NCBI GenBank assembly: GCA_023248155.1
Contig: JAHFFE010000004.1
Location: 68,248-132,247, forward strand
Direction of reading: 5' to 3'
Origin: Candidatus Omnitrophota bacterium
GTDB taxonomy: Bacteria > Omnitrophota > Gorgyraeia > 1-14-0-20-64-10
DNA length: 64,000 nucleotides
This document shows positions 12,001 through 33,000 of the stretch, in pieces. The translations under genes and the position numbers were made by a program. The notes beneath the pieces were generated by a model, which had not been told where the DNA came from, did not search any database, and saw only the letters and a program-made list of their open reading frames with translations. The stretch's first letter is position 1, and each line of letters starts with the position of its first letter.

Positions 12001-15000
12001 CTGGAAAGCGATTGAAACCGCGCGGCTCAAAGCGGCGCGCAGTGACGTGACCCAAGATGGCGTTACGGATTACCGCGATGTTGAAGCGATCCGCCACATT
12101 GACCGCGAAGAAGTCATCCGGGCCACGGCGTCTGAAATCGCGAAAGCGGACCTGAACCACAACGGCGCGCTGGACGCTGCGGATGTGGCGCAGCTTGAGC
12201 AGACCATGAAGCATATGCATGAGCTGGATCTTGATTTCGACGGCAAGATTGTTTTGGCGGACGAACTGGCGGCTTTTGACAAAGCCAAAGAATTTTACGA
12301 TCTGGGCTTGAGCCTGAGCGCCGAACAGTTTGCGCGGGCGGATATCGATCAGGACGGTTTGATCACGCCGGCGGATCTGCGCATTTATGAAAAACTGACC
12401 CAGCAGTGGGATGCTGCCGGCACGCCGCGCAATGTTTTTGATCTGACCAACGACGGCGTGGTGGATGGCAGCGATGAGCAGCGCATGGTTGATCTTTTGA
12501 TGGCCGAGGGCCTCAAAATCACTGAAGAAGAAAAAGTCCTCGGCGATATCAACCGCGACGGCATAACGGACAGCCGTGATTTGGATCTCTATACGCTGAT
12601 TTATCAAAATGAAAACCGGCTGAATATTGATGGGGTGGCGGGCATCAATGCGCAGGATGTTAATAAAGCCGCCTCGATCCGCAGCTGGCTGGCCGCGCGT
12701 AATGCGCCGGTGCGCGGGCTGACTCGGTTGAAAGATCTTCAAGATGCGGGCGTGGACACCGCCAATCCGGATGCGGTTGCCGCGCATCTCAACCAGCTGA
12801 TTTCAACCACGCAGGCCAAGATTGCCGACGTCAACGGCGATGGTCTGATCGATGAAAAAGATTTGGCCCGCGCCCGCGAAGTCGAGGAAATCGTCAGTTA
12901 CGGTATGGACCGCGGCTTTGCGCTGGACATGCGTTTCGATCTTAACCAGGACGGCAAAGTCGATGACAGTGATCTGGCGGCGCTGATGACCGCCATTTCC
13001 AACCAGATTGTGCATGATGTGAATGCGGACGGCGCGGTCAACCAGACGGATGTGGATCTTTTTGACCGCATGATCCGCTATCAACGCACGGGCTATACGG
13101 TGATGCCGGATGATCTGGAGAATGCCGACATTGACCATAGCGGCGCTTTTGATGCGGGCGATGTGACGAATTTCACAAACGCGCTGCCATTCTACCGCGA
13201 TGTGACCGGCGATAAACGCCTGGATAGTGCGGATCTGCTCGCGGTCCGTAAAGCCAAGGCCTTGCAGGAAGCCGGTTACACGGACCGCTCCTCCGGCGAG
13301 CCGGTTTACCGGCCGCTGACGCTGGATCTGCTGCGCCGTGCGGATCTGACCCGCGATAACGTGATCGACAGCGCGGATAGCGCTTTTCTGGCGCAGGCCA
13401 TTCAAGGCAATCTGGATCTGACCGGTGATTTTGCCGTGACGATCGAGGACCAGCTGCGGCTCGGCCAGTATTCGCCGTGGGGGCTGGGCGTGAAGCAAGT
13501 CGAACGTGCAGACATTGATCAGGACAATCTTATCGGCGCGCGTGATTATGCCGGCCTGCTGGCGGCGCTCGGCGGCATTGACCGCGCGGATGTCACCGGT
13601 GACGGCAAGGTCGATGCCAATGATCTCAAAGATTTACGCCGGCTGGTCGAAGCGGCCAAGCTGAAAGTGACCGGCCGCGATGTGGTGCTGGCGGATGTGA
13701 CCCGGGACCGCAAGGTCGATGTGGCGGACGTGACGAAAGTCATTGAAAGCGTACGGGCTTTGCAGGCCTTTGACATCACCGGCGACCGCATGGTCAATGC
13801 GCTGGATGAACAGGCGCTTTTCTTCCTGTGGGGCGTCGAGCCGCTGGATCTGTTAAACCAAAGCGAAGCCGCTTTGGCTGAGCTGGAAGCGCGTGCGGCC
13901 GCTGCGGTCGACGCCGGGGAAGCCCGCGCCATCGAACGCGCGGCCCAAGGTATTTTTAATCAGGCCCTGACCATGGAAGAAACCGGCAAAGCGATTGCGC
14001 GCATGCTGCTCAGCCCCAGCGAATCGCAACAGATGCTGCAGGAAATTGCGCAGATCATGGCGCGTCTTTCCGGACACCGCAGCGCCATCCAAGCCGTGCT
14101 CGCTGCGCTCACCGGACAAGCAGCGCTGGCCCCCAGCCTCGCAAGCCAGCTGGAAGATGCCCTCAAAGTCCTCAAAGAAACTTTGGTTGAAGCGCGCGCG
14201 GCTGAAAGTTCGGATGCGGTGGATTCATTGGTGCTTTCGGTCGAGCCCGTGATTCAAAATATGCGTACACTGGCCGGGACGCAGGGACAGGTCCAGCCAG
14301 GAACTCAGCCGGACCTGTCCCTGGCTGCCTATCTGGATCAGGGCGAGGCTGTTTTTGCTGAACTCTCCGCGTTGGCGCAGTCCGTGCGGCAGGCGGAAGA
14401 GACGATGGCAGGCCTTGCCGAACAAACCCGCAATGCGCTGGCGCTGGCGGATTGGATGAGCCGGCAGTTTGAAGCCGGGGCAGATACCAGCCCTGCTTTT
14501 GTGTCGCTGCTGGCTTTTGGCCGGAATGCCCTTGCCGAGTCGCAGCGTGCGGCCCAGGCTGCGCGCGCCCGGGCGTCGGGTCTTCTGGCACAGATGCCGG
14601 CGAATACCGCGGCCCTGCAGGCCCAGGAAACTTTGCGGGGCGCCCAGAGCCGTTTGGATCAAGCGCTGGAAACCCTCACGCAAAGTTTGCATGAGGCCCA
14701 GGCTGCCGAGAACGGTGCCATGCCTCTGGTGAAGGAAGCTCAGAGCAAACTCGACCACATGCGGATTTTGGCGGCGCAGTCCGTGACCACGGCCCTCGCA
14801 GGCACGGCCGCAGCGCTCGTGACCCAGCTGGCCCGGTCCAATCTCGGCCGCGAACCGACACCGGATGAAATCAGAGCCGCCGTGGCGGGCCTCGCGGCAG
14901 GAGAAACACTGGAACAGACGGCGGGCCGCTTGCTGGCAATTTCCGATGCGGCCCTGATCAAAGCCGCGCTGGATCCGCTGCGGGATAAAACCTCCCTGGA

Positions 15001-18000
15001 TGAAAGTGCTCTGGGCGCGCGCTACCAGGCCATGACCGCAGGCCTCTGGCCATTGGAAAGTGCGACTCAGTCCGTGATGAATTATTTTGGACCGGCCATG
15101 GATTGGCCGGCCGAATTGGCACGCTTGCAGCGGGGGGCCGACGAAATTCTCGCAGATTTAGAGGCGGCTCTCGCTGAAATGGACCGCTTGCTTTATTTGA
15201 ATCCCGGCCATGCGGAACTGAACGCCAATGCTCTGCTCATGACCGATGTTCTGAATCAGGCGGCCGGCCTGGCTGAAGACCTGCGGGAATTCCCGCAGGT
15301 GCTGACGCCGGAAATCGAAAATTTCAACCTTGCCAAAGCCACGGCCGAAGCCAGCCTCGCGTCTGACGAAAATCTGCAGGTCCATCTGGCCGCTGCCGAG
15401 CTTTTGACCGGACGCATCGACGCCATGACTGAAACTGCGGATAGGGCGCAAGCGCTCCGCTGGCTGGAAACTTTTGAAACCACGGCCGCCGGTCCTGTGC
15501 CTCAGCAGATCAACGCACTTGTGGCGGCCGCCAGAACCAAAGTGGAGAGCGCGCAGCAGGTGGAGGCCGGCATCCGTCTGCTTGAAGCTGCGGCCGAACA
15601 AACAGACGCAACCGCCGAATTTATCCGCGCGCAAGCCGGCACGATGAACCGTGAAATGCTGATCGGCGTCGTGGATCAGCTTCTGGGGCAGTTGGAGGCG
15701 GCCGCGGCACAGGCTTCAGGCGTGATCAGTCAGTATCCGGACACGGCGGCGTTCAGCCGTTTGAGCGGCCGTCCGGAAGCGCTGATGGCCCAGATTAAAG
15801 CCGCTCACGAAGCCATGCTGGCTGAATTATTCCATGAGCGGGTGGTCACAAATCGCGGGGCCGATTCCGTTGAAACCGCCGCGCTTTTGGCCGGTGCTGT
15901 GAACCGGTTGGGCGCAATCGCTGCGGACAATGGAGTGGCAATTCATGAATTGCCACTACGGATGCTTTATACGCTGATAAATAACACACGATCCAAAGTC
16001 GCTGTGCTGGAAAGTGAACTGGCTACGGCCGTCAATGCCGGCGTGGATGCCGGGGCTAATTTGGCCTCAATTCGCGACTACCTGGCCCGTATTGACCAAA
16101 CTGCGGCGGCCTTGAACGCCCGCGCTGCGGCTTTGGGCGCGGATGTGAATGCGCCGCTGACGGCGGCTGACAAGAATACCGCTTTAATTTCGATTCTCAG
16201 CGGACTTGAAACGCAATCCCAGGCTGCGAATGCGACGGCCTTGACCCTCAAACAAATCCAGCAGGCTGTGCGCGAGATCCAGGGACAAGTCCAGTTAGCC
16301 GCTCAAGTGCCGGGGACTCAGGGAGAGGTCCAGTTAGCGGCTCAGATGGACCTGTCCCTGCTCACGGTTAAAAATGCACTGCTGCGTGCCACCGGCGGCG
16401 CGTCTCTGGTGGAAGAAACGGTTTATCTGGCCGCGGCCGGGCGCTTGTCGCTGGTGCTTGCCAACAACACGAATGATTTGACCTTATTGAACCGGCTCGA
16501 AGTCTTTGCCGGTGATTTTGCGGTTCAAGCCGCCGCGGCCCGCGCAAAATTGGCTCAGCTTGCTGCCGCAGACAGCACGGGCGTCTATGGCTTCAGCGCC
16601 AATCTGCCTTCACTCGCCGCGCTCGAAGCCGATACCGGCAAAACCAAGGCGCTTGTGACCGAAAGACTGGCGCATTTGGCCGGACAGCCGCAGGCTTGGT
16701 CCACGGATCCGCTGGTGCGCGCGCTGCATGAAGCCGAAGCCCTGCAAAAAGCCATCATGGTCCAACAGGGACAGGTCCAAACAACTCAACAGGACCTGTC
16801 CCTTAAGACTTCGCTCGCGATCCTGGAAGCGATTGGGGAGGCCGTGACCAGCACGATCGCGGCTTTGACGGAATCCGCCCGTCAGGATGCGGCCGCTTTT
16901 GAAGACCGCCAGCGGCTGCTTGAGAATTACCGCGGTCGTTTTGATTTCTCCGAACAAGCCGCTCTGCTTCAAAGTGAAGAAACCATAGCGGCGGCGGAGC
17001 AGGCGCGTGCAGCCGAGCAAGCCGCATTCGAGCGTCACCTCGCCCTGCTGCAGGACCTTGAAACCCAGGATGAAACCCTGGCCCGGGCTTTGGCGGATAT
17101 GGCGATTGACGATGCTCAAGAATTGCGCGATTTGGGCGCTGAGCCGGATCTTGCGATCGTGGAACGCCTGGAAATGCAGGCTGAATCCGCGGAAGCGCGG
17201 CAGGATTCCGGAGCGCAGATTGAAGAACTGGCCGAGGGCCTCGCCGCCTGGATCGAACGGCTGGAGACCATGACGGCCGGTCTGAATACCAACGAGGAGT
17301 TGGCGGTGCGTGAAGGCTTGCTTGATCTGGCGGATGCCGTTACGGCGCATTGGCAGGAACTGCTGACCGAGCCGTCTGCGGCCGAGGTGCGCCAAAAAGT
17401 CGATGCGCTGCGCAGCGTTGTGACGCAAGACCTGCAGGCGCTTGAGACCACAAAAGGGGCTGCGGATGCGGCCGCCGATTGGCTGAAAGAAAACGGCGCG
17501 CATCTGACCGAACTGGACCGTCTGATTGGCGAGGCCATGGCCGCATTTGAGACTGCTGCGAAGACCACCGGTGTAGGGGCGGGTTCTAAAACCGCCCAGG
17601 ATGCCGCTGCTTCCGCGCGCCGGCTCTATGAAGAACTCGAAACGCTTCAGGATGAATTTATCGCGCTTACAGCCGAAGTCGAAAATGCCTCAGCCTATGA
17701 AGACGACATCAAGGCCATGATGACCGCGCGTGAGGAGTTCCGCGCGGAACTGGACGGCCTGGCGGAAACACAAATCCTGACGCAGATCCAAACCTCGCAG
17801 GGCGCGGATGTCACCCAACTCCTGAATACGATTGAAGCGCAGATGACGGCCAATCTCAATGCCCTGCGCAATCTGGACCCCGAAGAATTCAAAAAATCCA
17901 CGGCCGAACTTTTGGCGGGTCATCCGGAATTGGGCGGCCTCAAACTCGAACTGCCGGATGCCGGAGCCCTGGATGAAAACTCTCAGCCCGACCTCTTGCG

Positions 18001-21000
18001 GGCCTTGCTTGAGGGCGCCCGGACGCCGGCGGCCGGCGGCACGCCGCTGCGCGGTTATTATCTGGGTTATCCGGCCACAGCGACGCTGATGAACCTTGAA
18101 AATCTGATCAGCGTTCTCGCGGCCCAGCAAGGCTCCGGAACCATTTTCGCGGAAACTTGGCTGACGAGCATGCGTGAGCGCATGAACGCCTGGTTCAACC
18201 GCATGTTCGGGATGGAGGCTGAACTTGAACAGTACCGCGTCCGCATGATCGTTGACAATTCCGCTGCGGGCATCGAATGGTCACGCGTACTCGATGGAAA
18301 TATTAGCGCGGTCAATCAGCTGATCAGCGAAGCGTCAGGCGCTGCCTCAGGCGCGGATGCGGTCAATAAACTCCGCCAGGCGGAGCGTATGATCGCGCTG
18401 GTCGATGCCCAGCAGCGAGCCGTGCAGGCGCTCTGGGACGATGTGCGCGCGCGCGGTGAGATGAACAGCATCTGGTATAAGACGCGTACGATTTGGCAAA
18501 GCCTGCCGCCGCTGGATGTTTACGGGAAGTATCTGGACCAAATGGAAATCCTAAACGAGGGCGGTGAAATTTTACCGGGTGAAATCGTCGCCTATGGAAA
18601 ACATGTGAGTGATTTTGCCGCGGAACTGGCGAAAAAAGTCAAAGACCTGAATCTGGCCGCCGACTCGGCGCGCCAGGCCGCGGCCGGCAAACTGATAGGC
18701 TCGCTCAAATCGAGCCTGCAGGCGGACCAGCGCGTGATGGATAGTCTGTTGACGGAGATTCGCGGAACCTCTGATGCCTGGGTGCGCGAGGCGGCCCGGC
18801 GCGAGATCCACACCCTGCTGGAAAAGGCCGGCCAGCGCCTGGCGGATGCCAGCGTGCAGGCCGACGAGTGGCTGGATGCCACGACCTTTACAGTGTGGAC
18901 CCGGTCCATTCTGCGGGAAAACGGCATCGACCCCGATCTGCCCGAAAATCAGAAGATCTTTGAAGAGAAGAGGGCGAATGTGCGCCGGAACGAAAAACTG
19001 AAACTGGATGGCGAGCGCCGCGCGGCGGCTGCCATGTTGAACGGCTTGCGCGTGCTGGCGGAACAAGCCGGGGCCGCAGTCATGGACAGCCTGATTTTTG
19101 AAGGCGGCAGCAAACTGCTGACCGCTGAATTGAGTGAAATCAGAACACTGCTCGGCGTCTTTGCCGCGCGCAGCGAATCTGAGCGCGATGCCGTCAAGAC
19201 CGAGGCCTATCTTGAAACTGCACGCATTCTGCGTGATAAAGCGCTGGTTTTGATGAATAAGGTGCGTGAGCAAGCGGCGGCCGAGGACGCCACGCTGGAA
19301 GACCGCAATGAAGTCGCCAAAGCGGAGGCCCAATGGGATCTGATCAACACTGCCGCCGGCTATCTGGAAAATAACCGTTCAGTTCAAACAACTCAGGCGA
19401 CCGGCGGTGATTCCCTGACGAACGAGGCGCAGCGATTCTTTGAGGCCGGCAATGCTCTTTATGGGGTGCTTGATGATATGCTGGCTCGCCGGCAAGTGCA
19501 GCTGGCGGGGCCCTATGACGATCTCAGTAACGATTCCGCGTTTACCATTTTACTCGCATACGGGGATCAAATCACAGCCGACCTGACGGCCCTGCGGGAT
19601 CGTATTCAGGCCACGAGCGGTATTCTCTCAAACGCGTTTGTGAATACAAACATCTGGCTGCAGCACCTCAGCGGCATCATGGAAAATGCGCGGACCCGCG
19701 CCGCAGCGTTTTTCACCATCGGCGACCCTTCCTCGATCCGGCCCCTGGACGCCATGCGGACACTCAACAGACTGTCCGGCAGTATGACAGCGGTCATCAA
19801 GGAAAGCTTAGAATCGCACGAATTCGCTGCGTACCGGGCGGAGAACTATCGCGCGTTTGAAAGTCTGGCTCAGGGACTGCGCCGGACGCTGGATCAAAAA
19901 TACCAGCAGCTGGATACGATCTACCGGGCGGATCGCACGGCGGCAGCCCTGGCCGAACTGAAAGACGCCGCGCTGGAAGTCTTCAAACCCGCGGCCCGCT
20001 TAAATGAACTGCGCATGGCTTTCGGTGAAATGGCCGAGGTGGCGCTGGCGGATTTAACCCAGGCTAGCGTCGTCGAATTTTTACGGACAGAGATCGAACG
20101 CTCCCTGTCTGCGAATGAAGCGGCCCTTATCACGCGCGCGGCCGAAGAAGTCCAGCAAGGGTTGATCCGCGCCGCGTCCGTCTCGGCCGTGGGCATCGCG
20201 CGAAACCATACGAAGTACGAAGTGGTCTTTAATAATACGACACAGCGGCGCGAACGGACGGTGATCGATTATGCGCTCAGTGCCGGCGGTACAGCTGCCT
20301 TCCGCCAGACGCTGGCGCAGGCCTCAGATTTGCAAAAGCCACTTTCTGAAATGAACGAGCTTGCCATTCTCGAAAAAATCCGCGAAACCAACGGCGTTTT
20401 TGCCACGGACTATGTCAAACGGCAGGCGCAAATGTTTGAACGCTGGCGCCTCAAATTTATTCCGCAGGACAATGCCTTGAGCGTCACGTGGAGTATGCTG
20501 ATTTCGCGTGAACTCGAGGAAGAGTTTAACCGCTATACGAATATTCGCGATACGCTGGGCACTTCGGCCCTGGACGGCTATGCCGATGAGTTCTCTTATC
20601 ATCTCAGCATGCTCAACTGGGCGGGGAGCGTGATTGCACGGGAAGGCACGAATACGTTCAGGAACAAGAGCGTTGAAATCGACGGCACAAACTGGGCGGT
20701 GCGGGTGGATGCAGTCGATGTTCTCGCCAAAGCAGTGGATAAGGAAACTTCGCCGGAAAAACTTGAAATGCTGGTGCCGATGCTCAAGGAACAGCTGGAC
20801 GCGTTGGAAATTTTAAATGGCTCGGGGATGTCTCTTGGGAAAGACAATTACCACATCGGCGAAGCGGCGTATTTTGCCGTGCAATCCTTCAGCTCTGAAG
20901 TTAAGACCCGGGCCTATGACATTTATCTGGAGGCGCTCAAGCGCCTGGAGTTTTTCCGCATGCTGGAATTGGGCGGGGAGCAGTCCGTGGCCGATATCCG

Positions 21001-24000
21001 CGCTCAGGTCTATACCGCCGTCGAGATGCGCCGCAAGGCTCAGGCGTCCAATGATCTGGAACTGCTGATGACGCTTGCCGAGGATGCCCGCAACCGGCGC
21101 AAACAGGCGCAGAAAATTTATAAGTCTATGCTCACGCTGCTTGCAAAAGCCCTGACCGGCGACTTCAAAAATCTCGACAAGGTGCTGCCGGCGTTCAAAA
21201 AACGCGTGACGGCGGCTAAAGAGCTTTTAAACCGGCTGGCCGATGAATGGGCGCTGATTGACGCGGCGCGCATGGAATTGGCGGCCAAGGCGGACCGGGG
21301 CGCGCTCCTCGCCGGAGAAATCACCTCCCTGGCGAGTCAGGCGGCAAAATTGCGCGCTGAAATTCTGGGCCGCGAAGAGGCGGCCGGCGAACCTTCGGGC
21401 GCGGCGGCTTTAAAAGATATTCCGCTTGAGAAAATGGCCAAACTGCTCGGAATCACGGAGGAGGAAGCGGAAAAGGTCGTGGATGTGCTTTCGAATAAAA
21501 CGCTCACGCACCAGAATTCAGCCGCCGTCCTGCAGTCCATGGAGGCAGTGCGCAAAATGTTCGACAGCGGCAAACTACGCCTCGAACGTTTGACGGCGCT
21601 GATTGAAGTGCCCTATGCCGACATTGCCGGCGGAGTCCAGAAGACGGCCGCGGCGATTAACGCCATCATCGACAAGCCGGCCGCAGCCCAGGCAGCGGCG
21701 GATATTTTAGCGCAATTCGGCACGGGCATTTCCGCGGTTCCGGGAAGCGATGCGGCTATTTTAGCAGCCCTGGTGCTGGGCCTGTTGGCCGCCAGCGTGG
21801 AAGAGCCCGCAGCTTCCGCAGCTCTGAAAGCCATAATCCGCGAAGCGGCGGCCAAGGCGGCAGCGGAAGCGGAAATGCTCGGAGGCACCAGCGTCAGTCT
21901 GTCCGCGGCGGCCGCATCCGCCCAGGGTTCAGCGGCGATGGCCACGCGCATTGTGAACCAAATTCAAACCGAAAGCGGTACGGCGAGCGGCAGCGTGACA
22001 ACCGCGGCCGCGTTAGCGGTGCTGGCTGCGGCATATTCCGCTCACACGGCACAGCCGGCGTATTCCGAAACCACGGCGTCTGTGCTAGCCTCGAATATCA
22101 ATGCGTTTACGGCTTACCGGGCATACCTTGAACCGCTGCCTCTCGTGTCGCGGGCCGATGCGGCGGCGACAACAGCGCTCATTGCCGACGGACTCGCGGC
22201 CGGAAGCGACGTCAGCGCGGAGGCCGTCCGCGCGGCGGAAAAAGCTTCGGGCCTGGCGCTCATGCTGACGTCGCTGATGTCGCAGGATCGCGGTATTCCG
22301 GGTTATGCGCCTCAGGCGGCTGCGTCGTCTGCGGCCCTGTCGCTGGCGGCACTGTCCCATGCGATTGTAACATCGGGAGTCACCGGTGCGATTCGCAGTG
22401 CTGCGCTTAATGCAGCGGCCAGCGCCCGGGATTTGGCCGCGCAGGTTGCGGGAATTTCATCGCCGGCTCAGGGTGCCCAGGCGGCACGTGATGCTCAGGC
22501 CATTTCCGCAAATCTTGTCCAGATGTTTGCGGAAAATGAGTTAGCTATGCCGGCGGCCATGCAGAACTTTGTGACGGCAATTGCCGTTGCGGCAGAACTG
22601 GCCGGCGGAGCGGCCGCCGGAACGTTGAATCTGCCGGAGGCCGTCTCTATGGCCTCGGGCCTTGCGGTGACCTTTCTCCGCAATAGTCAAAGCTACCTGC
22701 TTACTGCAAGAACGCGCGAGCAGACGGCGGCGCTGACGGCTCAACTTTCAACCGCTTCATCCTGGAGCTCATCCGCACCGCAGGAAGTCGCCGGCTCGAT
22801 CCATGGATTAGGCGTATCACTTACAGCCGGACAGGCTGCTTCCGATGCGCAGGTCATGGATGCGGTGGTAGCTGCGACGGCTGCTTTTAATCTTTTTGCG
22901 AATGCGATTACGACCGATTTTAACATTCCAGAGGAGATTCGAACTGCGGCGCGGCAGAAAGCTCAGAACCTCGTTTTTTACGCGCAGCACCTGGCGCCGG
23001 CCACGACCGTGGATTGGGCGGTGGCTGAGGCGCTCACCCTGATGCAGAATGATCTTTCGGATCTGCAGGGAATGTTCCTTGCGGCTGGAATTGGGATGCC
23101 TCCGCGGGTATCGGCAGCTATGAATGCGGCGGCCGCGGCGCGGATGCTCAGCAGTTCGCTGGTTCAATCTACGCCGGTATCGATTTCGACACAGGCGTTG
23201 ACGCAGAGTTTGACGACGGCGCTGCTGATACTTCCAAGCACGGCTGCGCCCCAGCCCTTGGAGCAAGGCGCAGCTTCTCAGGGCGCGCTGGCGCTCCAAG
23301 CAGCGAGCCGTCTTGCCGTAAGTCTGACGGCCGAGGCGGATATTACCCGGCTGGGCGATACCAGCGCCTTGAATTCCTCAGCTCTTGCCGCAGGCCTTGC
23401 CGCCGCGGCGTCCGCCGGATCCGCCATGCCGCAAGGCTTGACGTCTCAGGCGGCGCAAATGGCGGCGACCGCCTTGTCCATGATTGCGGCCGCGGCCATG
23501 ATTCCGCAGTCAACGGACGATTTGAAGCAGCAGGCCGCTCTCGCCGCCGCCCAGGCCCAGACGCTCGTCGAAAGATCGGGATCCTCGGAGGCGGTCAGTG
23601 CCGCAGAAATCAAGGAAGTTTCGCTTGCGGCGGCGCAGTTAGCCGATACCGTGAAAGCCTTCATGACTTCGCTCAATCTGACGGTACCGGCCAAAATTGA
23701 CCAGATGACGAATGCGGCTCAGCAAGCGGCCGCACTGGCGGGTGCGATTGAAAAGGGCCGTTCGGGCGCTTCGATCGTCCAGGCTTTTGGAGTCAGCGGC
23801 GCGGGCGTGATTCAATATGCGCTCCACAGCCCCGAAGGCAAGGCTGTTTATGAAGCTTATCGCGATGTGCTAGGCCGTGATCCCAAGGGCGAAGAACTGG
23901 CCGTGGATTTGGCCGACGTGCTGGCCGGCAAACTGACGACCGCCGATTTGAAAGTGCGCCTGCTCGGTTCTGAAGAGTACCGCCAGACCCGTGCCTTGAT

Positions 24001-27000
24001 GGAACGCGTCATTCTGTCGGTGGGTGCGGTGCTTGAAAATTATACGGGCTTAAAACGCAGCGAACAGATCATATTCGCTGCCGGCTTTGGTATTCCCGCT
24101 TCCATGGCGGCCTCACTGAATAAAGATTCTGCCACAGCTATTCTTAAATACCTGTCGGAACAAAGCCTGCACTTCGGCATCAGCGCCTTCACGGCTCTCA
24201 GCTTCATGCTCTCTCAAGACTCACGACTCAAGACTCTCGACTACGAAGAACTCGCGCGCCAGACGATTCTCTCCGACATTCTCTCCGGCGTGCTGCGTGC
24301 CGATACGCGCGGCGAACTGGTCCTCTCGGCTTTTGCGCTTCAAAATACGGCGGCGCACGCGGGGCTCGAACTTTACGGCCGGCGCATGACGGCCGAGGAA
24401 TTGCCGGCGCTTAAATTGCCGGCCATTATTCACCTGGACGGCGATCATTTTGCCGTGCTTGAAAAGGCCGACGCTGAAAACGTGACCGTGCGTGAATATA
24501 CGGGCGATTCTTTTGCGCTGAGCGTGGCGGAATTTGTGAAACATTGGGACGGCTTCGTGATGAGCGCCGATCAACCGGACCGCCGCACGCTTGACAGCGC
24601 GAGCCTGCAGCTCATCCGCGGTTCGGATGCGGCGCTGGGATCAAGCCCTGCCGATATTGCGGCATTGTCCGTCCAGCTTGGCAATTTGTTTGCCGCCATG
24701 GCTTCCGGTTCCGTGGATGCGACGCTGGCTCAGGCCGCCTTGGCCGCGGCAGGGGATTTGGTTTCCGTGCTGGCCATTTTTGAAGAATTAAGCGCCAAGG
24801 GCGCTTATCTCAAGAGTGCCGAAAATCTGGAAGAGCGCCTGCGCCAGCAGTCGCTGGCCTTCTTTGAGGAAATCGACCGGCTGGACCTGACCGTGCGCCG
24901 CGCTTCGCGTGTGTCGCAAGGCAAAGCTTTTATGGATCAGATCACCGCGCGCAACAAGGACATCCAGAATTTGCTCATTATTGCCCAGTCTACGGCTATG
25001 CAGTATCCTTCGAACTCGGCGATTGCCGCGGATCTTGCCGAAGTACAGACCATCGCGGCCCAGGCGGCGAACAAAGCCGCGCAGACCGCGATTTATCTGA
25101 ATGAATTGACGGCCGCCGAAGCCAATGCGGCCTCGCTGGCGTCCGCCATGCGCCAGGATCTTGCGCTCATGCAATCCCTGAACCTGCGCGCGCTGGCCAG
25201 CCGCAGCAGCGCGGAAGTGGCGTCGATTTTCTCGCAGGCGGATGAGATGGAAGACCAGATGCGCTTGCTGCGTGAAGACATCAACGACGTCTACGATGCC
25301 TTTCTCAGCAGTCAAGCCATTCTGGACCGTGCCACGGAAGCCAACGAACTGCTGCTGGAAGCGGCGCGCATCCTGGCCGAGTTGACCGTGCGCGCGCGTG
25401 CCGTGGCCCGTTATAACCAGATGAGCCCGCTGCTGTTGGACCGCGCGGATGTCAACCGCGACGGCAGCGTGACTGCCGCTGACGTGACAGCGCTCAATCT
25501 GGCCATGGCCACGGTGGATGACATCAATCTCGACGGCGTGGTCGACCTGCTCGATAAGGCCATCTGGCAGCAGCTCCTGCCGCTGATTCCGACGCTGGAT
25601 TTCCTGAATGGAACCTTAGCCGGGCTGGGCGATGTGGATGCGGACAGCCAGCTTGACAGCGACGACGTCTCCTTGTTCCGTTCGTACTTGTCGGCTTACG
25701 TCAACGTGGATCAAGACCCAGCCGGGCTGGTGGATTCGAGCGATGTCCTGGCCGTGAGCAATTATGTGAATTCAGGCTACACCTTCAAATACGGCACGCC
25801 GGACACCGTGACGCTGTACCGCTACTTCGGTGAAACCCAGCCCAAAGTCGTGCACGTGGCCGATCCGAACCAGACCATCTATGTCAATTCGATCTTTGAT
25901 GTACTCGATTCCACGAGCAATGAGACATTGGATGCCCTGACGGATGTGGAGTTTCCTGAGAATCAGGGCTTTTATGCCGGCCAGATGCAGGGAATTGAGC
26001 GCTCAGCACTGGCTTCCGATGATGAAAGCGCCGTGGCGCTCTTGGCCAGCCGCGCCCGCGACTTACTGGATCAGGCGCTCTTGGGCCGCGATCTTTTGAC
26101 CCTCATCAATACGCCCGCCAGCCGTCAAGTGGCACAGACTGCGGATGGAACGCTTGAAACTTTGGCTGATCTTTACACGGCCCTGCAGGATTGGACCAAG
26201 TTTGCCGCTCAAAAAGAAGACGTCGTGCGTTTGGATCGCGAAGCGCTCGTCAGTGCGGAAGCGGCGTTGGCCCAAGCGCGTGCCGCATTGGCCGGGCTTG
26301 TCGCTCAAGTCAATGCCGGCACGCTTTCATCGGCGGATCCTGCCTTCGCCGCGGCGCTGGCCAATGTCAGTGCCAGGGAAAGCGCATACACAGCGGCAAA
26401 AAACACCTTGAGCGCATCGGCGCAGGACTCCGGCCGCGTGCGGCGCGAGAAAATCCTGCTGGACTATCTCTACAAGTCGGCCAAGAACGATTTGGAATCC
26501 CTGCGGCGCTCGTACGAAAAAATTCGCGCTCAAGCCGAGGCGTTGCGTTACAAGAGTTACGCGGCCGTTACAAGTTCGTTTGTCCGCTATCTTGGAGATG
26601 CCGCCTATGCCGCGGGGCAAAAACTTGACCCCAATAAACCGGAGGACAAACCGCTGATCCGCGCGCTTCAGGAAGTCCAGGCCTTCCAGTACCGTCTGGC
26701 GGAAACAACCGGCAATGATTTGATGGACTTGTATAACGGCCTTAGCTTTGCGCGTGACAATGGGTGGGAAACCGGTCTTCAGCCGCCGGCGGACCCGATG
26801 CCTTTGACGATGGGCGCCTGGAATGATGATACCAACCCGCTGCAATTGATTGACTTTGATCATTCCAGCGCCCGGGAATTCCGCGCGAACGTCGACCGGC
26901 TCAAAATTATTTTCGAGCATTGGGGCGAACCGCTGCCTGGAACCGGCACGGGTGGTCTTGACCTAATGCTTGATGCCAGCCAGGTTACGTTCATCGAGCA

Positions 27001-30000
27001 GTTACGGGCCAAGATGGATACCATGACGCGTCTGATGCATCAAAACTATCCGTATTGGCAGCTGAAGCTGGGCGACGTGCTCTCAGGCGTGCCGCATTTC
27101 TTTACCGAGGCGCGCATGCTGATCGAAGGCGCTAAAGTGTATTACCAGGAACTCAAGATCCGGGCCGCGCTTGTGCGAAGCGCGCATCAGGCCTATGCCT
27201 CCCGTCAAACCGAATTTAATGCGGCCGCTGCTCGCGCTCTCGGTGTGGACCTGAAGGACCTGGATACGGATGGCGATGTGGATTATGACGATTTGAATGT
27301 TCTTAAAACCCGTGTGGATACGGAAGAGCAGGAGTATACCGGCACGCTGGGCTTAATGAGTGAACTGACCGCGCCCGATGTCGGCCTCGAAGCCGTGTTG
27401 AATAAACTCGAAGGCTTCTACGGCAATATGAAACCCGTGGACCGGCTTGAAAATCTGCGCCGTGAATTCTCGGCTTTTGAAGAACGCGTGCGCATGGCCC
27501 CAACGGCTGAAGCGGCGGCGGCTGAATACGAAGCGGCTGCGCTGGTGCTGCGTGACATCACCATGCCCAATGAAGAACACTCCGTGCGTATTTCCGGTGA
27601 GCTTGACCGCGCCGCCGCGCCGGGGACTTATAATCAGGTGGCCGTGTCTTTTGCCGCACCCATGCCTGAATTCAGAGTCGGGACAACAACCTTCAAATTT
27701 CCATTCCATCTGCGTATTGGCAATGAAATCTTTGGCATGCGTGCCGGCGACCACACCGTGACGCCCGAAATCATGAACCAGGCGTTTACGTTCTATAAAC
27801 TTTATGACGTGGTCGATGTGACTCTGCCGGATGGGTCGATCATCGGTTACAACCAGCCGGTCACCACGCTGGCCGCCATGAATCCCTTTGTTTCGTATTA
27901 CGATATTCCGACGGGAGAACACCGGGTCAACGTGGGACCGATCACTTACCGGCTGGATGAAGGTTTGACCGGTCTTTGGCTGCGGCTTGAAACCGAAAAA
28001 GATCAATATGTGGAAATCGCCGAAGAACAATACAGCCTCTTCATGAGCGGCAATCCCGTTTATATGGCCGTGCGCCGTGCCTATGAAGATGCGGCGGCCG
28101 CCTACGAAAGTGCCGCCAACGCCGTCACCGCCGAAGAGGAACGTGTGGCGGATGAGGAAGAGGATCGCGCGGCAGCTATCCGCCGGAGCGTTGACGCACT
28201 GATGCAAAATCAAATCACACCGCTTGGGCTGGGGATTTTCGGCACATCCGGCAGCGTTCTTTTAGATGCGGCCGAGATCGAGCGCCGTTTGGATGAGTTC
28301 GCGAATTATGAAGCCGAGTTTGATCAATTGCAGAATGAAATCGTCCGCCTGCAAGCCATGGCTTTGGCGCCGGCCCTGACCGAGGTCAATGCCAAGGCCG
28401 CACTGGTTGCCGCCCAAGCGGCGCCGCGTAATGCTGTCAAGGCTGATCTTGAGACAGCCCACGCCCAGGCGCAATTTGCCGCGGAATTGGCCGCGGCCTT
28501 TAACGCCGCGCGCGCGGCGTTGGGAAGGGGCCAGCTTTCGTCATCCGGACTTGCTGGGCTAAGCGAGAGTGTGTTGAATGCGCGCTACAGCGGACTTTTG
28601 GCCGAGAGACTTGCTTCTGAACTGGCGCTGGCGCGCTACATGCAAATCTATGAGCGCATGAATGGTGCGGCGCGCGCGCGTCTGGATTCCATCTACGACC
28701 GCACGGCTTTGGCCGCGGATTGGCAAGCCGCATTCAGCAATTTGAACACGGCGCTGCAAACTGCGGAAGCGGCGCGGATCGCGGATGAGATTACGGCCGG
28801 AACAACGAATTTATCCGCGATTGCTGGCAATCTCAATAGCACGATTACCGCAGCGGATACGAATTTTGACAACCGTAAACTGGTGCTTGATACCGCGGCC
28901 GGAGCGGCCACGGATAACGCCACGCTCAAACCGCTGGTCGAAGGCGCGGACGGCTATATCGAAATGCGCAACAAAATCCAAGGCATGAAAGATCTTTTGG
29001 AACGCGCCCTGAATTGGTCGACGGACGCTTCTTTCGTGGCCTCCGTCACCGCCATGCTGTCGACGATCAATGCGGATGCGGGCGCCTACGACACTGCGAT
29101 CGCGATGCAAAATGTCCGCTTGGCGCATTTTGCCCTGCGTGACGGTCCGGTCACGGGCCAGCGCAACCGGGTCGTGACGCTCAAGAACCAGGCGCAGACG
29201 ATTGACACCGGCCTGCCGCCCAATCCCACGATCCAGGATGCGCGCGCGATCAATGCCGTGCTGGCACGGGTTGCGGCCGCTGCCGGACAAATCGAAAAAA
29301 TGCGCGATGAAGCGCGCGAACTTTTCCGCCGCACGGATGCGTATTATGCGGCGGTCGCGGCTTCGGGGCAGATCATTTTGGCGCCCTTGCGCGCGGATGA
29401 AATCAATGCGCTGAACGACATGAACAACCTCCTTCTCAATTTGAACACACGGCTTGCCGCGCTTGAAAATGACGCCTATCTGGTCGAACGCGACCGGTTG
29501 AACGGGATTAAGGCCGATCGCTTGACGGACAAAAACAACCGTTGGACGGACCTGACGGCAGCCGGCGGCCTGACGCCGATGAGCGGCAGCTATGAGAATT
29601 ACTACGCCAACCATGATCTGGTGCGCGCCCTGCGTGAGGAGACCGACGCAGAAGCCGTGGCCGGTGAGAAAGTTAAGGAACAACGCGACATCGTGACAGT
29701 TCAGCTTGTTGCTCGCGCCGACGCTCTGCGCGCTTCGATGCAGGCTGTTATTCAAAGCCAGCTTGAGCCGCTGCTTGCGGGCCTTCTCGATGTCAACGGC
29801 GTGCCCGTGCTTTCCGAAGCGGAGTTGACTCTGCGCATGGGGCAAGCTCGCACCAAACGCGCTGACTTTGAGGCCCTGCGCGATGAGTTGAACCGGATTA
29901 AAACCTATCTGCCTGACGATGCCCGGGAAGATTTTCAGGTTTATCTGAATGCCGCTTCGACTTTTGGCCTGCGGGTCGATGAGATTTTGACTCAGCTGGC

Positions 30001-33000
30001 GGATGCGCTCAACTATGAAGTGCATGCGGATGGTGCGCGCGCAGCGATGAGCGCCGCTGCGGCCGCTGCGGCCAGCGCTTCAGTGCGGATCGGCGGCCTG
30101 AATTTGACTGCGCTTTCGGATGCGGCTTTGGGCAATCTGCGCTCGGGGCTTTTGAGCGACCGCGCCAATCTTGAAGCCGCCCTGCTCAACTATGAGCGCC
30201 TATTCGCCACAGCCACGGGCGCCAGCCAGAACCGTCTGGCCAGCATCTATAACACCGCGTCCCTGCGGGCGGCCTTTAACAGCATGTTTAATGCACTTGA
30301 TGCCGAACTGGCACGCCGCGAACAGATTTTGATTCAAGCGGCGCTGACAAGTATGCCGCCTGCGCTCACGGCAGCCACATTGGCTGCCAATACGGCCGCC
30401 ACGATTGCCAATTGGAAAGCTGATTTTACAACTCGCCTAGGCCTGTTGGAAAGCGCCTTCCAGACGGCCTCTACGGGTGCGGCCATGAATCTAGTCATTC
30501 TGAATGCGGCGGCAGATGATTTGACGGACCTTCTGCTGGATGCCGAAGAAGCGCGCCGCGCCGTCACGCGCATGCCAGCCTGGGTGGCCGAAAGACCGCT
30601 GACGGAAACAGCGGCATTCCGCAATGAAGTCACAGCCGGTGCAGAAGAGATCGGCTTCCTGCTTCAGCGCATCACGGCCAAAATGCTGGGCATGAACAAA
30701 ATTGCCGGTTATCAGACCATGAAGGAAGGCGAACTCAGCGCGAATCTTACGGTCGTTCAGGCCGCTAAAGCCGAGGTTGATGCGCTTGAGGCGGCCTTGT
30801 TAGCAGTGCCTGCTGCGGATGCGCCCGTCACGGACCTGGATCGCGCGCGCGTGGAAGGGGAGATTGCCTTGAAGGCCATGCATCTGCAATGGTCACTGGC
30901 CGAAGAGCGCCTGCGCGCCTCGCGCGAATTGCAGCTTGGCGCCGGCGCCGCCGCCGCGGGCTATACGGCCCCGTCGGTTTCTGACCAGGATACGGCCTTG
31001 CTTGGCATCATGCAGGCTGCCGGCCGCCTGTCCACGCGCCTGGCCGACCTAGATAAACGCCGCGAACTCAAAGCGCTGGAAGAAGCCCGGCGCAAACAGT
31101 ATGAGGCTGCGCTCAAAGTCCAGGAAGCCAAAGACCGGGTCAATGGCGACTCGGTACTCTACTGGTTCCAGACGGTCCATGACATGGCCTATCAATCCCT
31201 GCAGGAAACCCGCGATCTCAAGCGTGCCTTTGAAAATGCCTTTGCCGCCATGCGCGTCTCGTTTGAAAACATGCGCGCCAAAGTGCAGGCTGAAAACGAA
31301 ATTCAGAAAAAAGCCAAAGATCTGTCCGAGGAACTCAAGGCGCATGCACAAATTGTCAACCAACTTGTCTTTGACTTGTCACTCTTGGAAAATTTCGGTG
31401 AGATCGTGACCGATCCCGACAACGCCAACTTCTCCCATGTGGATTTGGCGGATAACGCCCAAATCCTGCTGCGTCAGATCAACGAATATACGGGCGGGCT
31501 GGGCGACGGCAAGAAGGGCCTGATCGATGACTATCAAGACATCAAGGCCATGGCCGAGTCTCAGCCGGAAAATATCGAATTGCAGCGAATTTTGAAAGAC
31601 GTGGAACCGACCGCGCTTGACGCCATGGCCATTCAGCGCGTACTCAGCGACCTCTTTGGCGTGATGAGCGCCTACAGCCGTTCGGTCCAGCATCAGGAAC
31701 TAGCGCGCGCAGCCATCGAAGCCGAGAAACAGTTGATGGCGCTTTTTGAAAATGAAACCGACGACGGCGCCAAGGCGGCTTACTTTGACCTCTTCCAGCA
31801 GGCGGAAGGCAAACGCCAGGAAGCGATGAATCTGTCCATGTCAGAAGCGCGCGGCATTCTGGGGAACCTGGACCAATTGCGCGAGTACGTCGATAACTCC
31901 GACCCGTTCCTGAAAGAAAACTATCCGTCGCTTCTGACGGCCGACAAGCTGCGCATCGTCAGCCTGCTTGAAAAAATCATCGGCAGTGCAAACCTGTTGT
32001 CTCTCTCCAACGGCACGGGCGTTGAGACACCATTGGGCTCAGTCGTCGATGTGGAACACCGTCTTGATCTGGTGACGCGCCTGCGCAATAACCGGGGTTT
32101 GAGCAACGCGCCGCAGACGGAATCCGGCAGCGCGATGACGAATGTTGAAAATTTTAAATTTAATTTTAAAAATGACGTCATTCCAGCCGGATTCCCGATT
32201 CAGAACAATACTGTCTATGAATGGTTCCCGGCACCCGCAACGCCGCCGGCCGTCACGCCCAAGTGGTACGACCTTCAAGCCGGTTCAATTAATTTCTCGG
32301 CTCCGGCTTCAAATTTTGTACCTGGCCAGGCGTATGTGATTATGCGCTATGTCAAGCATCCGACCCGCTATAGACCGTGGAACGGTGTGGGTCCGGAACC
32401 GATTCATGAAGACGAGGAATTCCTCTACCGTGTCGTCACATTCTTGCGTGAGCCGTCGGACGACAAACCGGGTGAGATGGTGACGATTCTGCAGCAGCCT
32501 GAGAGAAAGCTGATTCCCGATCCCTCTAACCCAGCGGAAAAAATTGTCGGCACGAAGTGGGGGACGGTCGGTACGCCGCGCACTGACGCTATCAACAAAT
32601 ATGTGCCGGGTGTGATTCTTGAGGGTTCATCCACGACCACGCCGCCGGTCGCAGAGCCGCAATGGACCGGTAAGTCAGCGGATGTGGCCAAGGATGAAAA
32701 TAATCAATTTGTCGTGGTCGTTGACGGCAAGATTTATCGTCAATCGGCCGCTCAGGTGACGTTGATCAGCGACAACCGCTATACACCCGGCGGAGATGGC
32801 AAACTGACGCTTCAAATTTTAGTGACCGAGGGCACGGCCATTTCCTGGAAACAGCTTGTGATTATGCCCGAGGCTTTCCGTGGTGAATTTAAAGGCGACA
32901 TCAAAACCATTTTAGGAGCCAAGGACGCGCATGACCGTCTGCTCAAGGCCATGTTCGGCGCCACGGGTACGGCGGCCAATCCGGCCACGCCCGACGGCAT

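Follow-up and report, generated by a model that had tools for sequence, protein, structure and literature searches.

The 64,000-nucleotide stretch of DNA analyzed here (the window) is spanned by a single giant reading frame. Forward frame 2 contained no stop codon across the window, whereas every other frame contained 263 to 1141 stops. The only Pfam matches in the giant ORF were to Dockerin_1/EF-hand, ILEI, and Peptidase_C39. Its features are listed below.

2..64000, + strand: giant stop-free ORF, at least 21,333 aa long, with neither end inside the window.
11801..13822, + strand: dockerin array 2 (aa 3934–4607), identified by Pfam (Dockerin_1, E = 3e-37; EF-hand) and by internal repeats in self-BLAST.
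13829..32092, + strand: helix-rich, Ala/Leu-rich, Cys-free, nonrepetitive region (aa 4610–10697), identified by composition, Chou-Fasman propensity, and periodicity.
13859..17458, + strand: AlphaFold2 tile 1 (aa 4620–5819), with 34 predicted helices of 12–53 aa, a median loop of 5 aa, and a pLDDT of 46.
21599..23791, + strand: Ala/Ser-rich, low-charge sub-region (aa 7200–7930), identified by composition, with Ala reaching 32%.
24119..24601, + strand: C39-like domain within the helical region, matched to Pfam Peptidase_C39 (E = 2e-10) over profile positions 45–129 of 133.
24818..25444, + strand: cluster of the longest predicted helices (62, 60, 33, and 44 aa, with turns of 2–4 aa) in an AlphaFold2 tile, overlapping the longest Pro/Gly-free run.
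25403..25864, + strand: dockerin cluster 3 (aa 8468–8621), which self-BLAST aligned with dockerin arrays 1 and 2 and which matched Pfam Dockerin_1 (E = 3e-5).
27623..28018, + strand: small beta-prone domain (aa 9208–9339) that interrupts the helical region, from the Chou-Fasman map and sequence.
28166..28798, + strand: copy 1 of an internal duplication (aa 9389–9599), 26% identical to copy 2 (E = 3e-12).
29714..30352, + strand: copy 2 of the duplication (aa 9905–10117), the self-BLAST partner of copy 1.
31145..31399, + strand: heptad-coherent segment (aa 10382–10466), 84 aa lacking Pro and Gly, with a period-3.5 power of 5.9 in 56-aa windows versus 6.3 for tropomyosin.
55244..56836, + strand: transmembrane-like hydrophobic cluster (aa 18415–18945), with Kyte-Doolittle 19-residue means of up to 2.46.

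The helix-rich region comprises 6,088 aa, of which approximately 5,200 are helix-prone. It lies directly downstream of dockerin array 2, the final repeat of which ends at about aa 4607, and extends to the point at which Chou-Fasman helix propensity drops, at about aa 10,640–10,700; the borders proposed in a preliminary description of this DNA (nt 13830–32090) were thus right. The composition of aa 4610–10697 was compared with that of the rest of the protein (15,245 aa). Ala accounted for 18.4% of the region versus 10.3% elsewhere (p = 9e-58) and Leu for 12.4% versus 9.7%, but Gln (5.3% versus 4.5%) and Glu (7.3% versus 6.3%) were only marginally enriched. Gly (5.4% versus 8.1%), Pro (2.4% versus 3.6%), and the aromatic residues F, W, and Y (5.3% versus 8.4%) were each about one-third less abundant than in the rest of the protein, and Cys was absent from the region, compared with 26 residues elsewhere. 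The claim that the region is almost devoid of these residues is wrong, however: it contains 148 Pro and 326 Gly residues together with 325 aromatic ones. The GC3 value was equal to that of the N-terminal flank, indicating that the bias arises at the protein level and giving no sign of foreign DNA.

Chou-Fasman analysis classified 75% of the region as helix-prone, compared with 22–32% elsewhere. Two 1,200-aa tiles, corresponding to 2,400 of the 6,088 residues, were modeled with AlphaFold2 from single sequences, and these models showed a helix content of 80% and 68% at low confidence (pLDDT of 46 and 40, pTM of 0.27–0.30). Hydrophobic residues recurred with a period of 3.5–3.6 residues at twice the strength seen in shuffled sequence, and 20 of 20 windows fell on the folded side of the charge-hydropathy boundary, with large hydrophobic residues making up approximately 29% of the region. 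These data support a predominantly alpha-helical, amphipathic region that is not disorder-like. An intrinsically disordered or low-complexity linker that resembles helix formers in composition only would be consistent with the very low AlphaFold2 confidence, the existence of only one database homologue, and the local abundance of Ala, Ser, and Gln. Such a linker is nevertheless very unlikely, given not only the charge-hydropathy and periodicity results but also the absence of tandem or cryptic repeats and a collinear orthologue alignment in which conservation is selective for hydrophobic residues.

The preliminary description had taken the amphipathic helix or coiled coil to be essentially continuous over some 6,000 residues and had proposed a length of several hundred nanometers for such a stalk; at 0.15 nm per residue, it would reach up to approximately 900 nm. 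The high helix content and amphipathic periodicity are compatible with this idea, as are a few long runs free of Pro and Gly, including the 84-aa segment, which is the only one in the region with tropomyosin-like heptad coherence. The helix breakers proved to be frequent, however: the 474 Pro and Gly residues are spaced 12.8 aa apart on average, and a length of 100 aa without either residue is attained only once (in a run of approximately 140 aa, aa 8336–8476). The two AlphaFold2 tiles together contained 77 separate helices, with a median length of 21 aa and a maximum of 62 aa, joined by loops with a median of 5 aa. In tile 1, where the median helix length was 26 aa, 25 of the 29 Pro residues were located at predicted helix ends. 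Heptad power remained at about 2 as the analysis window was widened from 28 to 98 aa, whereas that of the tropomyosin control rose from 3.3 to 10.4; unlike in tropomyosin, heptad phase was lost beyond approximately 28 residues. Even in the cluster of longest helices, heptad power was moderate and was gone at 98 aa. The helix breaks are also retained in the orthologue. The Pro/Gly frequency, the helix lengths, and the flat heptad power refute a continuous helix or coiled coil, leaving that reading with almost no credibility. The region instead appears to consist of some 180 short helices with conserved turns between them.

All three elements that had been said to interrupt the helix were present: the C39-like domain (Pfam-matched part, aa 8108–8190), dockerin cluster 3, and the small beta-prone domain. 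They are not the only interruptions, with at least five more non–helix-prone stretches of 40 aa or longer having been detected (aa 5407–5486, 6145–6191, 6470–6579, 6837–6899, 8987–9048, and 9686–9749). The C39-like domain retains the His motif but lacks the catalytic cysteine: in an alignment with a canonical C39 domain, the ECGAA of the latter is aligned with HFGIS. A short beta element follows dockerin cluster 3 in the AlphaFold2 model. In the modeled part of the Ala/Ser-rich sub-region (aa 7700–7930, residues 1–230 of tile 2), predicted helices were shorter (12–24 aa) and often started behind a hydrophobic-Pro cap; hhalign self-comparison revealed no repeat in this sub-region. With the exception of two small pairs, no tandem or internal repeats were found in the helix-rich region at the DNA or protein level, and aa 9389–9599 and 9905–10117 form its only sizeable duplication.

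The helix-rich stretch yielded no match in Pfam, NCBIfam, or the PDB, including no FIVAR or GA match. Among 1.84 billion representative proteins, a single homologue was found (E = 8e-40), a fragment annotated as Candidatus Omnitrophica from a metagenome-assembled genome. This affiliation agrees with the predatory or epibiotic setting suggested initially, given that the phylum Omnitrophota is predatory or epibiotic in published descriptions. The evidence for conservation thus comes from one orthologue, which ends after approximately 1,100 aa of the region. It is collinear with the region over approximately 1,130 aa (1,135 aa of the window protein against 1,092 aa of the orthologue) at 25–26% identity, with a length difference of only approximately 4%. 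Trp (50%) and Leu (42%) were much better conserved than Gln, Thr, Ser, and Lys (13–16%). Gly and Pro residues common to both proteins were at predicted helix ends in 14 of 20 cases, versus a baseline of 31%, and all four indels of at least 10 aa within the modeled tile coincided with predicted loops. The DNA of the orthologue is 49% GC, yet the compositional bias is maintained.

The helix-turn-helix pattern with short loops in the AlphaFold2 models might also indicate a superhelical alpha-solenoid, or several compact helical domains, serving mainly for binding, for example of dockerin-array partners or prey-surface ligands, rather than as an arm that sets distance; such a structure would measure far less than 100–150 nm from end to end. 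No significant hit emerged from a fold search (best E = 0.029); helical-repeat toroids and HAT repeats were the top nonsignificant hits, and alpha-catenin had an insignificant E of 1.9. The 12- to 24-aa helices of aa 7700–7930 fit such an arrangement, and nonrepetitive sequence with position-specific conservation suggests specific surfaces. On the other hand, no HEAT, ARM, TPR, or other repeat family was detected in the region even at E values of up to 10, internal sequence repeats are lacking, and typical solenoid helices are shorter than those of tile 1. We regard this binding platform as possible but rather doubtful, although HEAT repeats are reported, in a study of Omnitrophota giant proteins (10.1101/2023.11.21.568195), to be the commonest extracellular domain of the other class of these proteins.

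Kyte-Doolittle analysis, a hydropathy heuristic rather than a dedicated topology predictor and applied to a protein whose N-terminus lies outside the window, detected no transmembrane-like segment within the helix-rich region; the only cluster, at aa 18,415–18,945, is probably a membrane anchor. The region itself is probably extracellular. The amphipathic helices might be imagined to penetrate or cover a prey membrane, as a pore former, translocon, or apolipoprotein does, an idea for which the proposed predatory context and two marginally hydrophobic 19-mers (aa 7248 and 8242) could be cited. Both 19-mers include Asp, however, and have scores of no more than 1.9, and the region carries a net charge of –262, shows none of the 11-residue (3.67) periodicity that was strong in the apoA-I control, and matches no toxin or translocon family. 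A membrane-active role therefore appears very unlikely.

We consider it reasonably likely that the region is a folded extracellular all-alpha, multihelix scaffold and that the giant ORF encodes a surface protein of very large size, anchored in the membrane, that belongs with the "Dockerin-type giant proteins" of Omnitrophota. The approximately 180 amphipathic helices, mostly of 15–60 residues, would be joined by short, evolutionarily conserved turns, which imply that the chain folds back on itself, presumably into helical hairpins or bundles instead of one long helix. Judging from its position, the region may act as a long, semirigid arm or scaffold of fixed length that holds the binding modules on its N-terminal side (beta-rich, ILEI, and dockerin) apart from the remaining protein and carries the inactive C39-like domain, the third dockerin cluster, and the small beta domain as inserted modules. 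Short helices with conserved turns also mean that any stalk would be approximately three times shorter than the 0.15 nm per residue assumed previously implies. Six FG repeats of staphylococcal Embp, each of approximately 126 aa, have a Dmax of 34.8 nm by SAXS, or approximately 0.046 nm per residue (PMC7587433). If bundles were strung end to end as in Embp/Ebh, the region would add at most approximately 250 nm of reach, not approximately 900 nm. An extended arm of up to this length is thus possible, but, with approximately 7,700 aa of other domains between the region and the transmembrane-like cluster, it would be a mid-section and not a membrane-proximal stalk.

The ORF shares with the Dockerin-type giant proteins of Candidatus Omnitrophota, as presented by West-Roberts et al. 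2023 (bioRxiv 10.1101/2023.11.21.568195), its giant single-ORF structure, Dockerin/EF-hand arrays, ILEI and C39-like domains, few Pfam matches, and transmembrane segments situated toward the C-terminus and absent over most of the length. It differs in that the TSP3 repeats, discoidin, GNAT, and SecA-like domains mentioned there were not detected within the window. Neither that paper, in which term searches yielded only beta-helix tubules and CBM35/dockerin ladders, nor a second preprint on a "dockerin-bearing" class of Omnitrophota giant proteins (bioRxiv 10.64898/2026.06.07.730766), which defers a "dark-matter fraction" to later structure prediction, describes an all-alpha section of several thousand residues. 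The best functional analogue is Embp/Ebh, also a giant bacterial surface protein with several thousand all-alpha residues and short turns between helices of tens of residues, although a bundle topology is only presumed for the present region. Its three-helix bundles (FIVAR/GA, F and FG repeats) form an elongated rod (PMC7587433) and are encoded by 40–50 tandem sequence repeats with Pfam signatures, whereas the region studied here is repeat-free and has no detectable homology to them.

No sequence match was found between the region and the helical-bundle rods of eukaryotes. These long rods, including the talin rod, spectrin, and alpha-catenin/vinculin, resemble the region in their Ala/Leu-rich amphipathic helices, which have approximately 25–35 residues and are connected by short loops into three- to five-helix bundles, and in the weakly repetitive or nonrepetitive sequence of talin; they are, however, cytoskeletal, intracellular, and 3–10 times shorter. 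Periscope proteins have stalks that keep a functional module off the cell surface, with near-identical tandem repeats allowing length variation. The region, by contrast, is nonrepetitive and differs little in length from its orthologue over the first 1,100 aa. It resembles coiled-coil stalk proteins (tropomyosin, M proteins, SMC arms, and PrgA) in being helix-rich and in having less Pro, Gly, and aromatic residues than its flanks, but differs from them in its frequent Pro and Gly, short helices, and lack of long-range heptad coherence. The heptad-coherent segment of aa 10382–10466 is plausibly a true coiled coil.

The plus-strand reading frame that begins at nucleotide 2 runs without a stop codon across all 64,000 nt of the window (21,333 codons), with 263 to 1,141 stops in each of the other frames. 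The giant open reading frame (ORF) is open at both window ends and encodes at least 21,333 amino acids; many minus-strand ORFs of 150 to 645 amino acids that lie opposite it are shadow ORFs, which a gene caller could mis-annotate. Pfam coverage of the 21,333 residues was very sparse, consisting of Dockerin_1/EF-hand arrays (Dockerin_1 E = 3e-37 and 1.5e-25, together with EF-hand), an ILEI domain, and a partial Peptidase_C39 domain.

Recognizable features of the giant protein (all on the plus strand).
Residues 600-679: ILEI domain (Pfam, E = 2e-7)
Residues 2753-3120, 3934-4607, and 8468-8621: three dockerin/EF-hand arrays (self-BLAST)
Window 24119-24601, residues ~8040-8200 (Pfam match at residues 8108-8190): C39-like domain, partial Peptidase_C39 (E = 2e-10)
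Window 55244-56836, residues 18415-18945: TM-like cluster of six segments (Kyte-Doolittle hydropathy, heuristic)

In the heuristic hydropathy scan, most of the N-terminal part was TM-free and TM-like segments lay toward the C-terminus, with 6 of the 10 Kyte-Doolittle segments falling within residues 18,415-18,945 and the remaining four being marginal (1.61-1.94). The TM-like cluster is followed by at least 2,400 residues that include a DEVD (Walker-B/DEAD-like) motif at residue 19923. The strongest internal repeat of the window is a tandem duplication of residues 15034-15160 and 15180-15311 (window 45101-45481 and 45539-45934, plus strand; 45% identity, E = 3e-30), which lies outside the helical region and has no family assignment.

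The helical region (window 13830-32090, residues 4610-10697) is a real compositional domain with sharp bounds, and its coordinates in the preliminary description were accurate. The enrichment in Ala, Gln, Leu, and Glu described there held for Ala and Leu, whereas Gln and Glu were raised only marginally.

Amino-acid composition of the helical region and of the rest of the protein.
Ala: 18.4% versus 10.3% (p = 9e-58)
Leu: 12.4% versus 9.7%
Gln: 5.3% versus 4.5% (marginal)
Glu: 7.3% versus 6.3% (marginal)
Gly: 5.4% versus 8.1%
Pro: 2.4% versus 3.6%
Phe + Trp + Tyr: 5.3% versus 8.4%
Cys: 0 versus 26 residues

GC3 of the helical region equaled that of the N-terminal flank (0.66), and its raised GC content came from codon positions 1 and 2 because of the Ala codons. 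The possibility that the Ala bias stems from foreign DNA or purely from GC content was rejected, given this GC3 value and the retention of the bias in an orthologue with a GC content of 49%. In a Chou-Fasman map, 75% of the helical region was helix-prone, compared with 22-32% elsewhere; the map also showed more interruptions than the three previously listed (the C39-like domain, the third dockerin cluster, and one small beta domain).

The region had been read as a continuous amphipathic helix or coiled coil almost devoid of Pro, Gly, and aromatic residues. This depiction did not survive counting: we found 148 Pro, 326 Gly, and 325 aromatic residues, with only one Pro/Gly-free run of at least 100 residues (residues 8336-8476, 140 residues). 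Frequent helix breakers on exact counts had been set beforehand as grounds for abandoning a continuous helix, and Pro or Gly occurs on average every 12.8 residues.

We obtained single-sequence AlphaFold2 models for two 1,200-residue tiles of the helical region. Tile 1 (residues 4620-5819; pLDDT 46, pTM 0.27) was 80% helical, with 34 helices of 12 to 53 residues and a median loop of 5 residues, and tile 2 (residues 7700-8899; pLDDT 40, pTM 0.30) was 68% helical. DSSP assignment on both models yielded 77 helices with a median length of 21 and a maximum of 62 residues, none reaching 100 residues. Most prolines of tile 1 (25 of 29) were located at predicted helix ends, and even the 140-residue Pro/Gly-free run was modeled as separate helices of about 60, 33, and 44 residues. 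Model confidence is too low for the packing of the helices to be trusted; the predicted architecture, at the same low confidence, is one of helices of tens of residues each connected by short turns.

Periodicity analysis also failed to support a long coiled coil. With windows of 28, 56, and 98 residues, heptad (3.5-residue) power for the helical region was flat at 1.9, 2.1, and 1.9, whereas it rose to 3.3, 6.3, and 10.4 for tropomyosin; power at 3.67 residues for apoA-I likewise rose with window length (4.9, 8.9, and 15.5). Both control sequences were entered by hand. The 3.5-residue periodicity of the helical region was twice the shuffled value and had no long-range phase coherence, with tropomyosin-like behavior being apparent only at residues 10382-10466. 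Apolipoprotein-like 11-mer periodicity was rejected as well, being absent from the region, unlike the apoA-I control, as were TM helices, the hydropathy scan having picked out no more than a pair of marginal segments in the region, each with Asp in it. The region failed every defining feature tested of a canonical coiled-coil or single-helix stalk. A mostly disordered state, which would also have told against the helical reading, was not indicated: by the charge-hydropathy (Uversky) measure, a crude metric, all 20 windows of 300 residues fell on the folded side. The helical region is not disorder-like.

An exhaustive HMMER search with residues 4620-5819 against 1.84 billion representative proteins returned exactly one match, MBI3306332.1 (E = 8e-40; 25% identity along a collinear stretch of about 1,130 residues), a partial hypothetical protein of the Candidatus Omnitrophica metagenome-assembled genome (MAG) GCA_016196555.1. 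Its contig, JACPXL010000010.1, is 17.4 kb long, coding throughout, and has a GC content of 49%. MBI3306332.1 is collinear with residues 233-5585 of the window protein at 28-38% identity, covering the beta-rich part and the dockerin arrays and reaching into the first part of the helical region. The compositional bias is kept in its helical part (Ala 15.3%, Leu 13.7%, Gly 4.0%, Pro 1.0%, aromatics 3.7%). In the pairwise alignment, Leu (42%) and Trp (50%) were well conserved compared with Gln, Thr, Ser, and Lys (13-16%); 14 of the 20 Gly and Pro residues common to both proteins were situated no more than two residues from the end of a predicted helix, versus 31% of all residues; and all four insertions or deletions of at least 10 residues inside the modeled tile fell at predicted loops. 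As judged from this alignment and the predicted helices, the pattern is the one expected for a folded architecture of many helices with a putative buried core and fixed turns. The aligned lengths, 1,135 residues in the window protein and 1,092 in the orthologue, differ by about 4%, so that the length comparison called for in the preliminary description came out in favor of conservation for the first ~1,100 residues of the region in this one orthologue. A continuous helix or coiled coil is contradicted by four independent lines of evidence: breaker counts, AlphaFold2 models, periodicity, and conservation of the breaks.

The giant gene is split in the orthologue, with an upstream ORF of 524 amino acids (JACPXL010000010.1, 1-1700) overlapping the start of MBI3306332.1 by 4 nt. 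This upstream ORF shares 44% identity with residues 1-147 of the window protein, and the split, near the equivalent of residues 150-230, either is genuine or stems from a frameshift or an error in assembly. A faint match to PF06439 (3keto-disac_hyd), which we take to be DUF1080, was present only in the orthologue.

The helical region is essentially non-repetitive. No DNA tandem repeats were found in it by TRF, and protein self-similarity by BLAST and hhalign was essentially nil apart from one sizeable duplication (residues 9389-9599 versus 9905-10117, 26% identity) and a short loop motif. Cryptic repeats in the Ala/Ser-rich part were rejected on the basis of hhalign self-alignment (E = 0.78). 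The loop motif, QGQVQ...TQxDLSL, occurs in three copies within the first 1,000 residues of the region, at residues 4762, 5428/5441, and 5590 (window 14285-14326, 16283-16363, and 16769-16807, plus strand). All three copies map to a predicted loop or its immediate neighborhood and each coincides with a gap in the Omnitrophica orthologue, which suggests lineage-specific insertions in loops. At residues 9086-9098 (window 27257-27295, plus strand), inside the helical region and distant from the dockerin arrays, lies a lone calcium loop of EF-hand/dockerin-like type, DLDTDGDVDYDDL.

Word-indexed protein searches with residues 4610-6109, 6000-7199, and 8860-9360 gave no match, each search saturating its list of 8,000 candidates; these negatives are weak for that reason and since the first of the searches missed the homologue later found exhaustively. 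No match was obtained in metagenome scans with a single sequence or the two-sequence alignment as query or in a plasmid search with tblastn, and nothing significant was detected in PDB by sequence with single queries or a two-sequence profile. On the helical region, Pfam at E <= 10 and NCBIfam at E <= 1 detected C39 and dockerin only, with no HEAT, ARM, or TPR alpha-solenoid profile at E <= 10 in Pfam. A Foldseek comparison of the low-confidence tile 1 model with PDB gave no significant match, the best being a designed helical-repeat toroid (E = 0.029). The helical region is an unusually long, non-repetitive, near-orphan segment that is predicted to be all-α, with its structure coming from low-confidence models only.

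Dockerin-type giant proteins of Omnitrophota have been described (West-Roberts et al., bioRxiv 10.1101/2023.11.21.568195). The window protein resembles them in its dockerin/EF-hand arrays, ILEI and C39-like domains, long TM-free N-terminal part, and TM segments toward the C-terminus, and it also matches the "dockerin-bearing" class of a 2026 survey (bioRxiv 10.64898/2026.06.07.730766). Neither TSP3 nor a SecA-like domain was found within the window: no TSP3 repeat (PF18884) was detected by Pfam at E <= 0.01 in the 21,333 residues of a gene that extends past both window ends, and residues 17,501-21,333 contained no SecA Pfam match and no Walker A motif, although a SecA-like domain may be encoded further downstream, where the ORF runs on past the window. 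Judged by its domains, the whole protein appears best placed among the Dockerin-type giant proteins, an already reported class. Term searching of the two preprints brought up no long all-α section, and the 2026 survey explicitly defers the "dark-matter fraction" to later structure prediction.

The helical section shares with the rods of the staphylococcal adhesins Embp and Ebh an all-α composition, helices of tens of residues, and short turns, as far as the low-confidence AlphaFold2 models indicate. Tandem repeats of the Embp/Ebh type (about 126-170 residues) were not detected by BLAST, TRF, or hhalign, and FIVAR and GA gave no Pfam match at E <= 10. By analogy, the section may work most like Embp/Ebh helix-bundle rods or talin/spectrin rods; it belongs to neither family, because it lacks their repeats, signatures, and detectable homology. 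Nor does it resemble periscope-type stalks, given its lack of repeats and a length that is conserved as far as visible.

We conclude that the helical region is, on the predicted structures, a folded all-α scaffold of about 180 helices, this number being extrapolated from 34-43 helices per 1,200 residues. The helices would be arranged as hairpins or bundles, and the region is probably extracellular. Its position between the N-terminal binding modules and further domains, together with its own inserted modules, suggests that it may serve as an arm or scaffold. The extended stalk proposed previously is thus retained in part: helical structure is supported and a stalk may exist, but the region is neither a single helix or coiled coil nor membrane-proximal, with ~7,700 residues of other domains separating it from the probable membrane anchor, the TM-like cluster.

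FG repeats of Embp (~126 residues) measure about 7 nm each, and SAXS gives a length of 34.8 nm for six repeats (PMC7587433), which corresponds to about 0.046 nm per residue. With this yardstick, the ~5,200 helical residues arranged as a helix-bundle rod would extend at most about 240 nm, an upper bound, whereas a continuous helix would reach about 800-900 nm. The several hundred nanometers estimated previously from 0.15 nm per residue therefore exceed the bundle-rod value by a factor of about three or more. A solenoid, or packing side by side, would make the region shorter still. The ~900-nm "single helix" picture gives way to a testable helix-bundle picture of no more than ~250 nm.

The C39-like domain within the region has lost the catalytic cysteine, with the canonical ECGAA aligned to HFGIS, and retains the His motif DHFAVLE; without this cysteine it is probably non-proteolytic. 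In RTX exporters, HlyB among them, catalytically dead C39-like domains serve in substrate binding. A scan of genome contigs with the C39-like segment gave a sole match, in an Aestuariivita MAG (JAPORU010000148.1, 9788-12013), which was rejected as a giant-protein relative: its 741-residue ORF has an N-terminal canonical C39 peptidase domain and the look of an ordinary ABC-type exporter. A more specific proposal, which we consider rather improbable, is that the ~5,200 helical residues would form a single non-repetitive, fixed-length serial-bundle rod of ~200-280 nm that sets how far an apparatus for attachment or predation in Omnitrophota can reach; along it, the inactive C39-like domain and the third dockerin cluster would act as docking stations. 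Such a length would, to our knowledge, far exceed that of any rod built by a known non-repetitive helical-bundle protein.

The giant genes found in Omnitrophota are presumed to function in attaching to other microbes or preying on them, and most of their length is without recognizable domains. Here, ~6,000 unannotated residues are assigned a defined predicted state, folded, helix-turn-helix, non-repetitive, and Cys-free, with an architecture conserved in the one known orthologue. If the region forms a rod, the protein could bridge a distance similar to the diameter of its ultra-small producer cells, with direct bearing on how such cells reach hosts or prey; if it is instead compact and devoted to binding, it would constitute a very large interaction surface. 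In either case it is a near-orphan, with one homologue among the 1.84 billion representative proteins. Shorter helix-prone sections, dissimilar to the main helical region by BLAST, are present downstream at residues ~12200-14000, 16440-17060, and 19080-19800 (window ~36600-42000, ~49300-51200, and ~57200-59400, plus strand), so that helical 'dark matter' in this protein extends beyond the main region.
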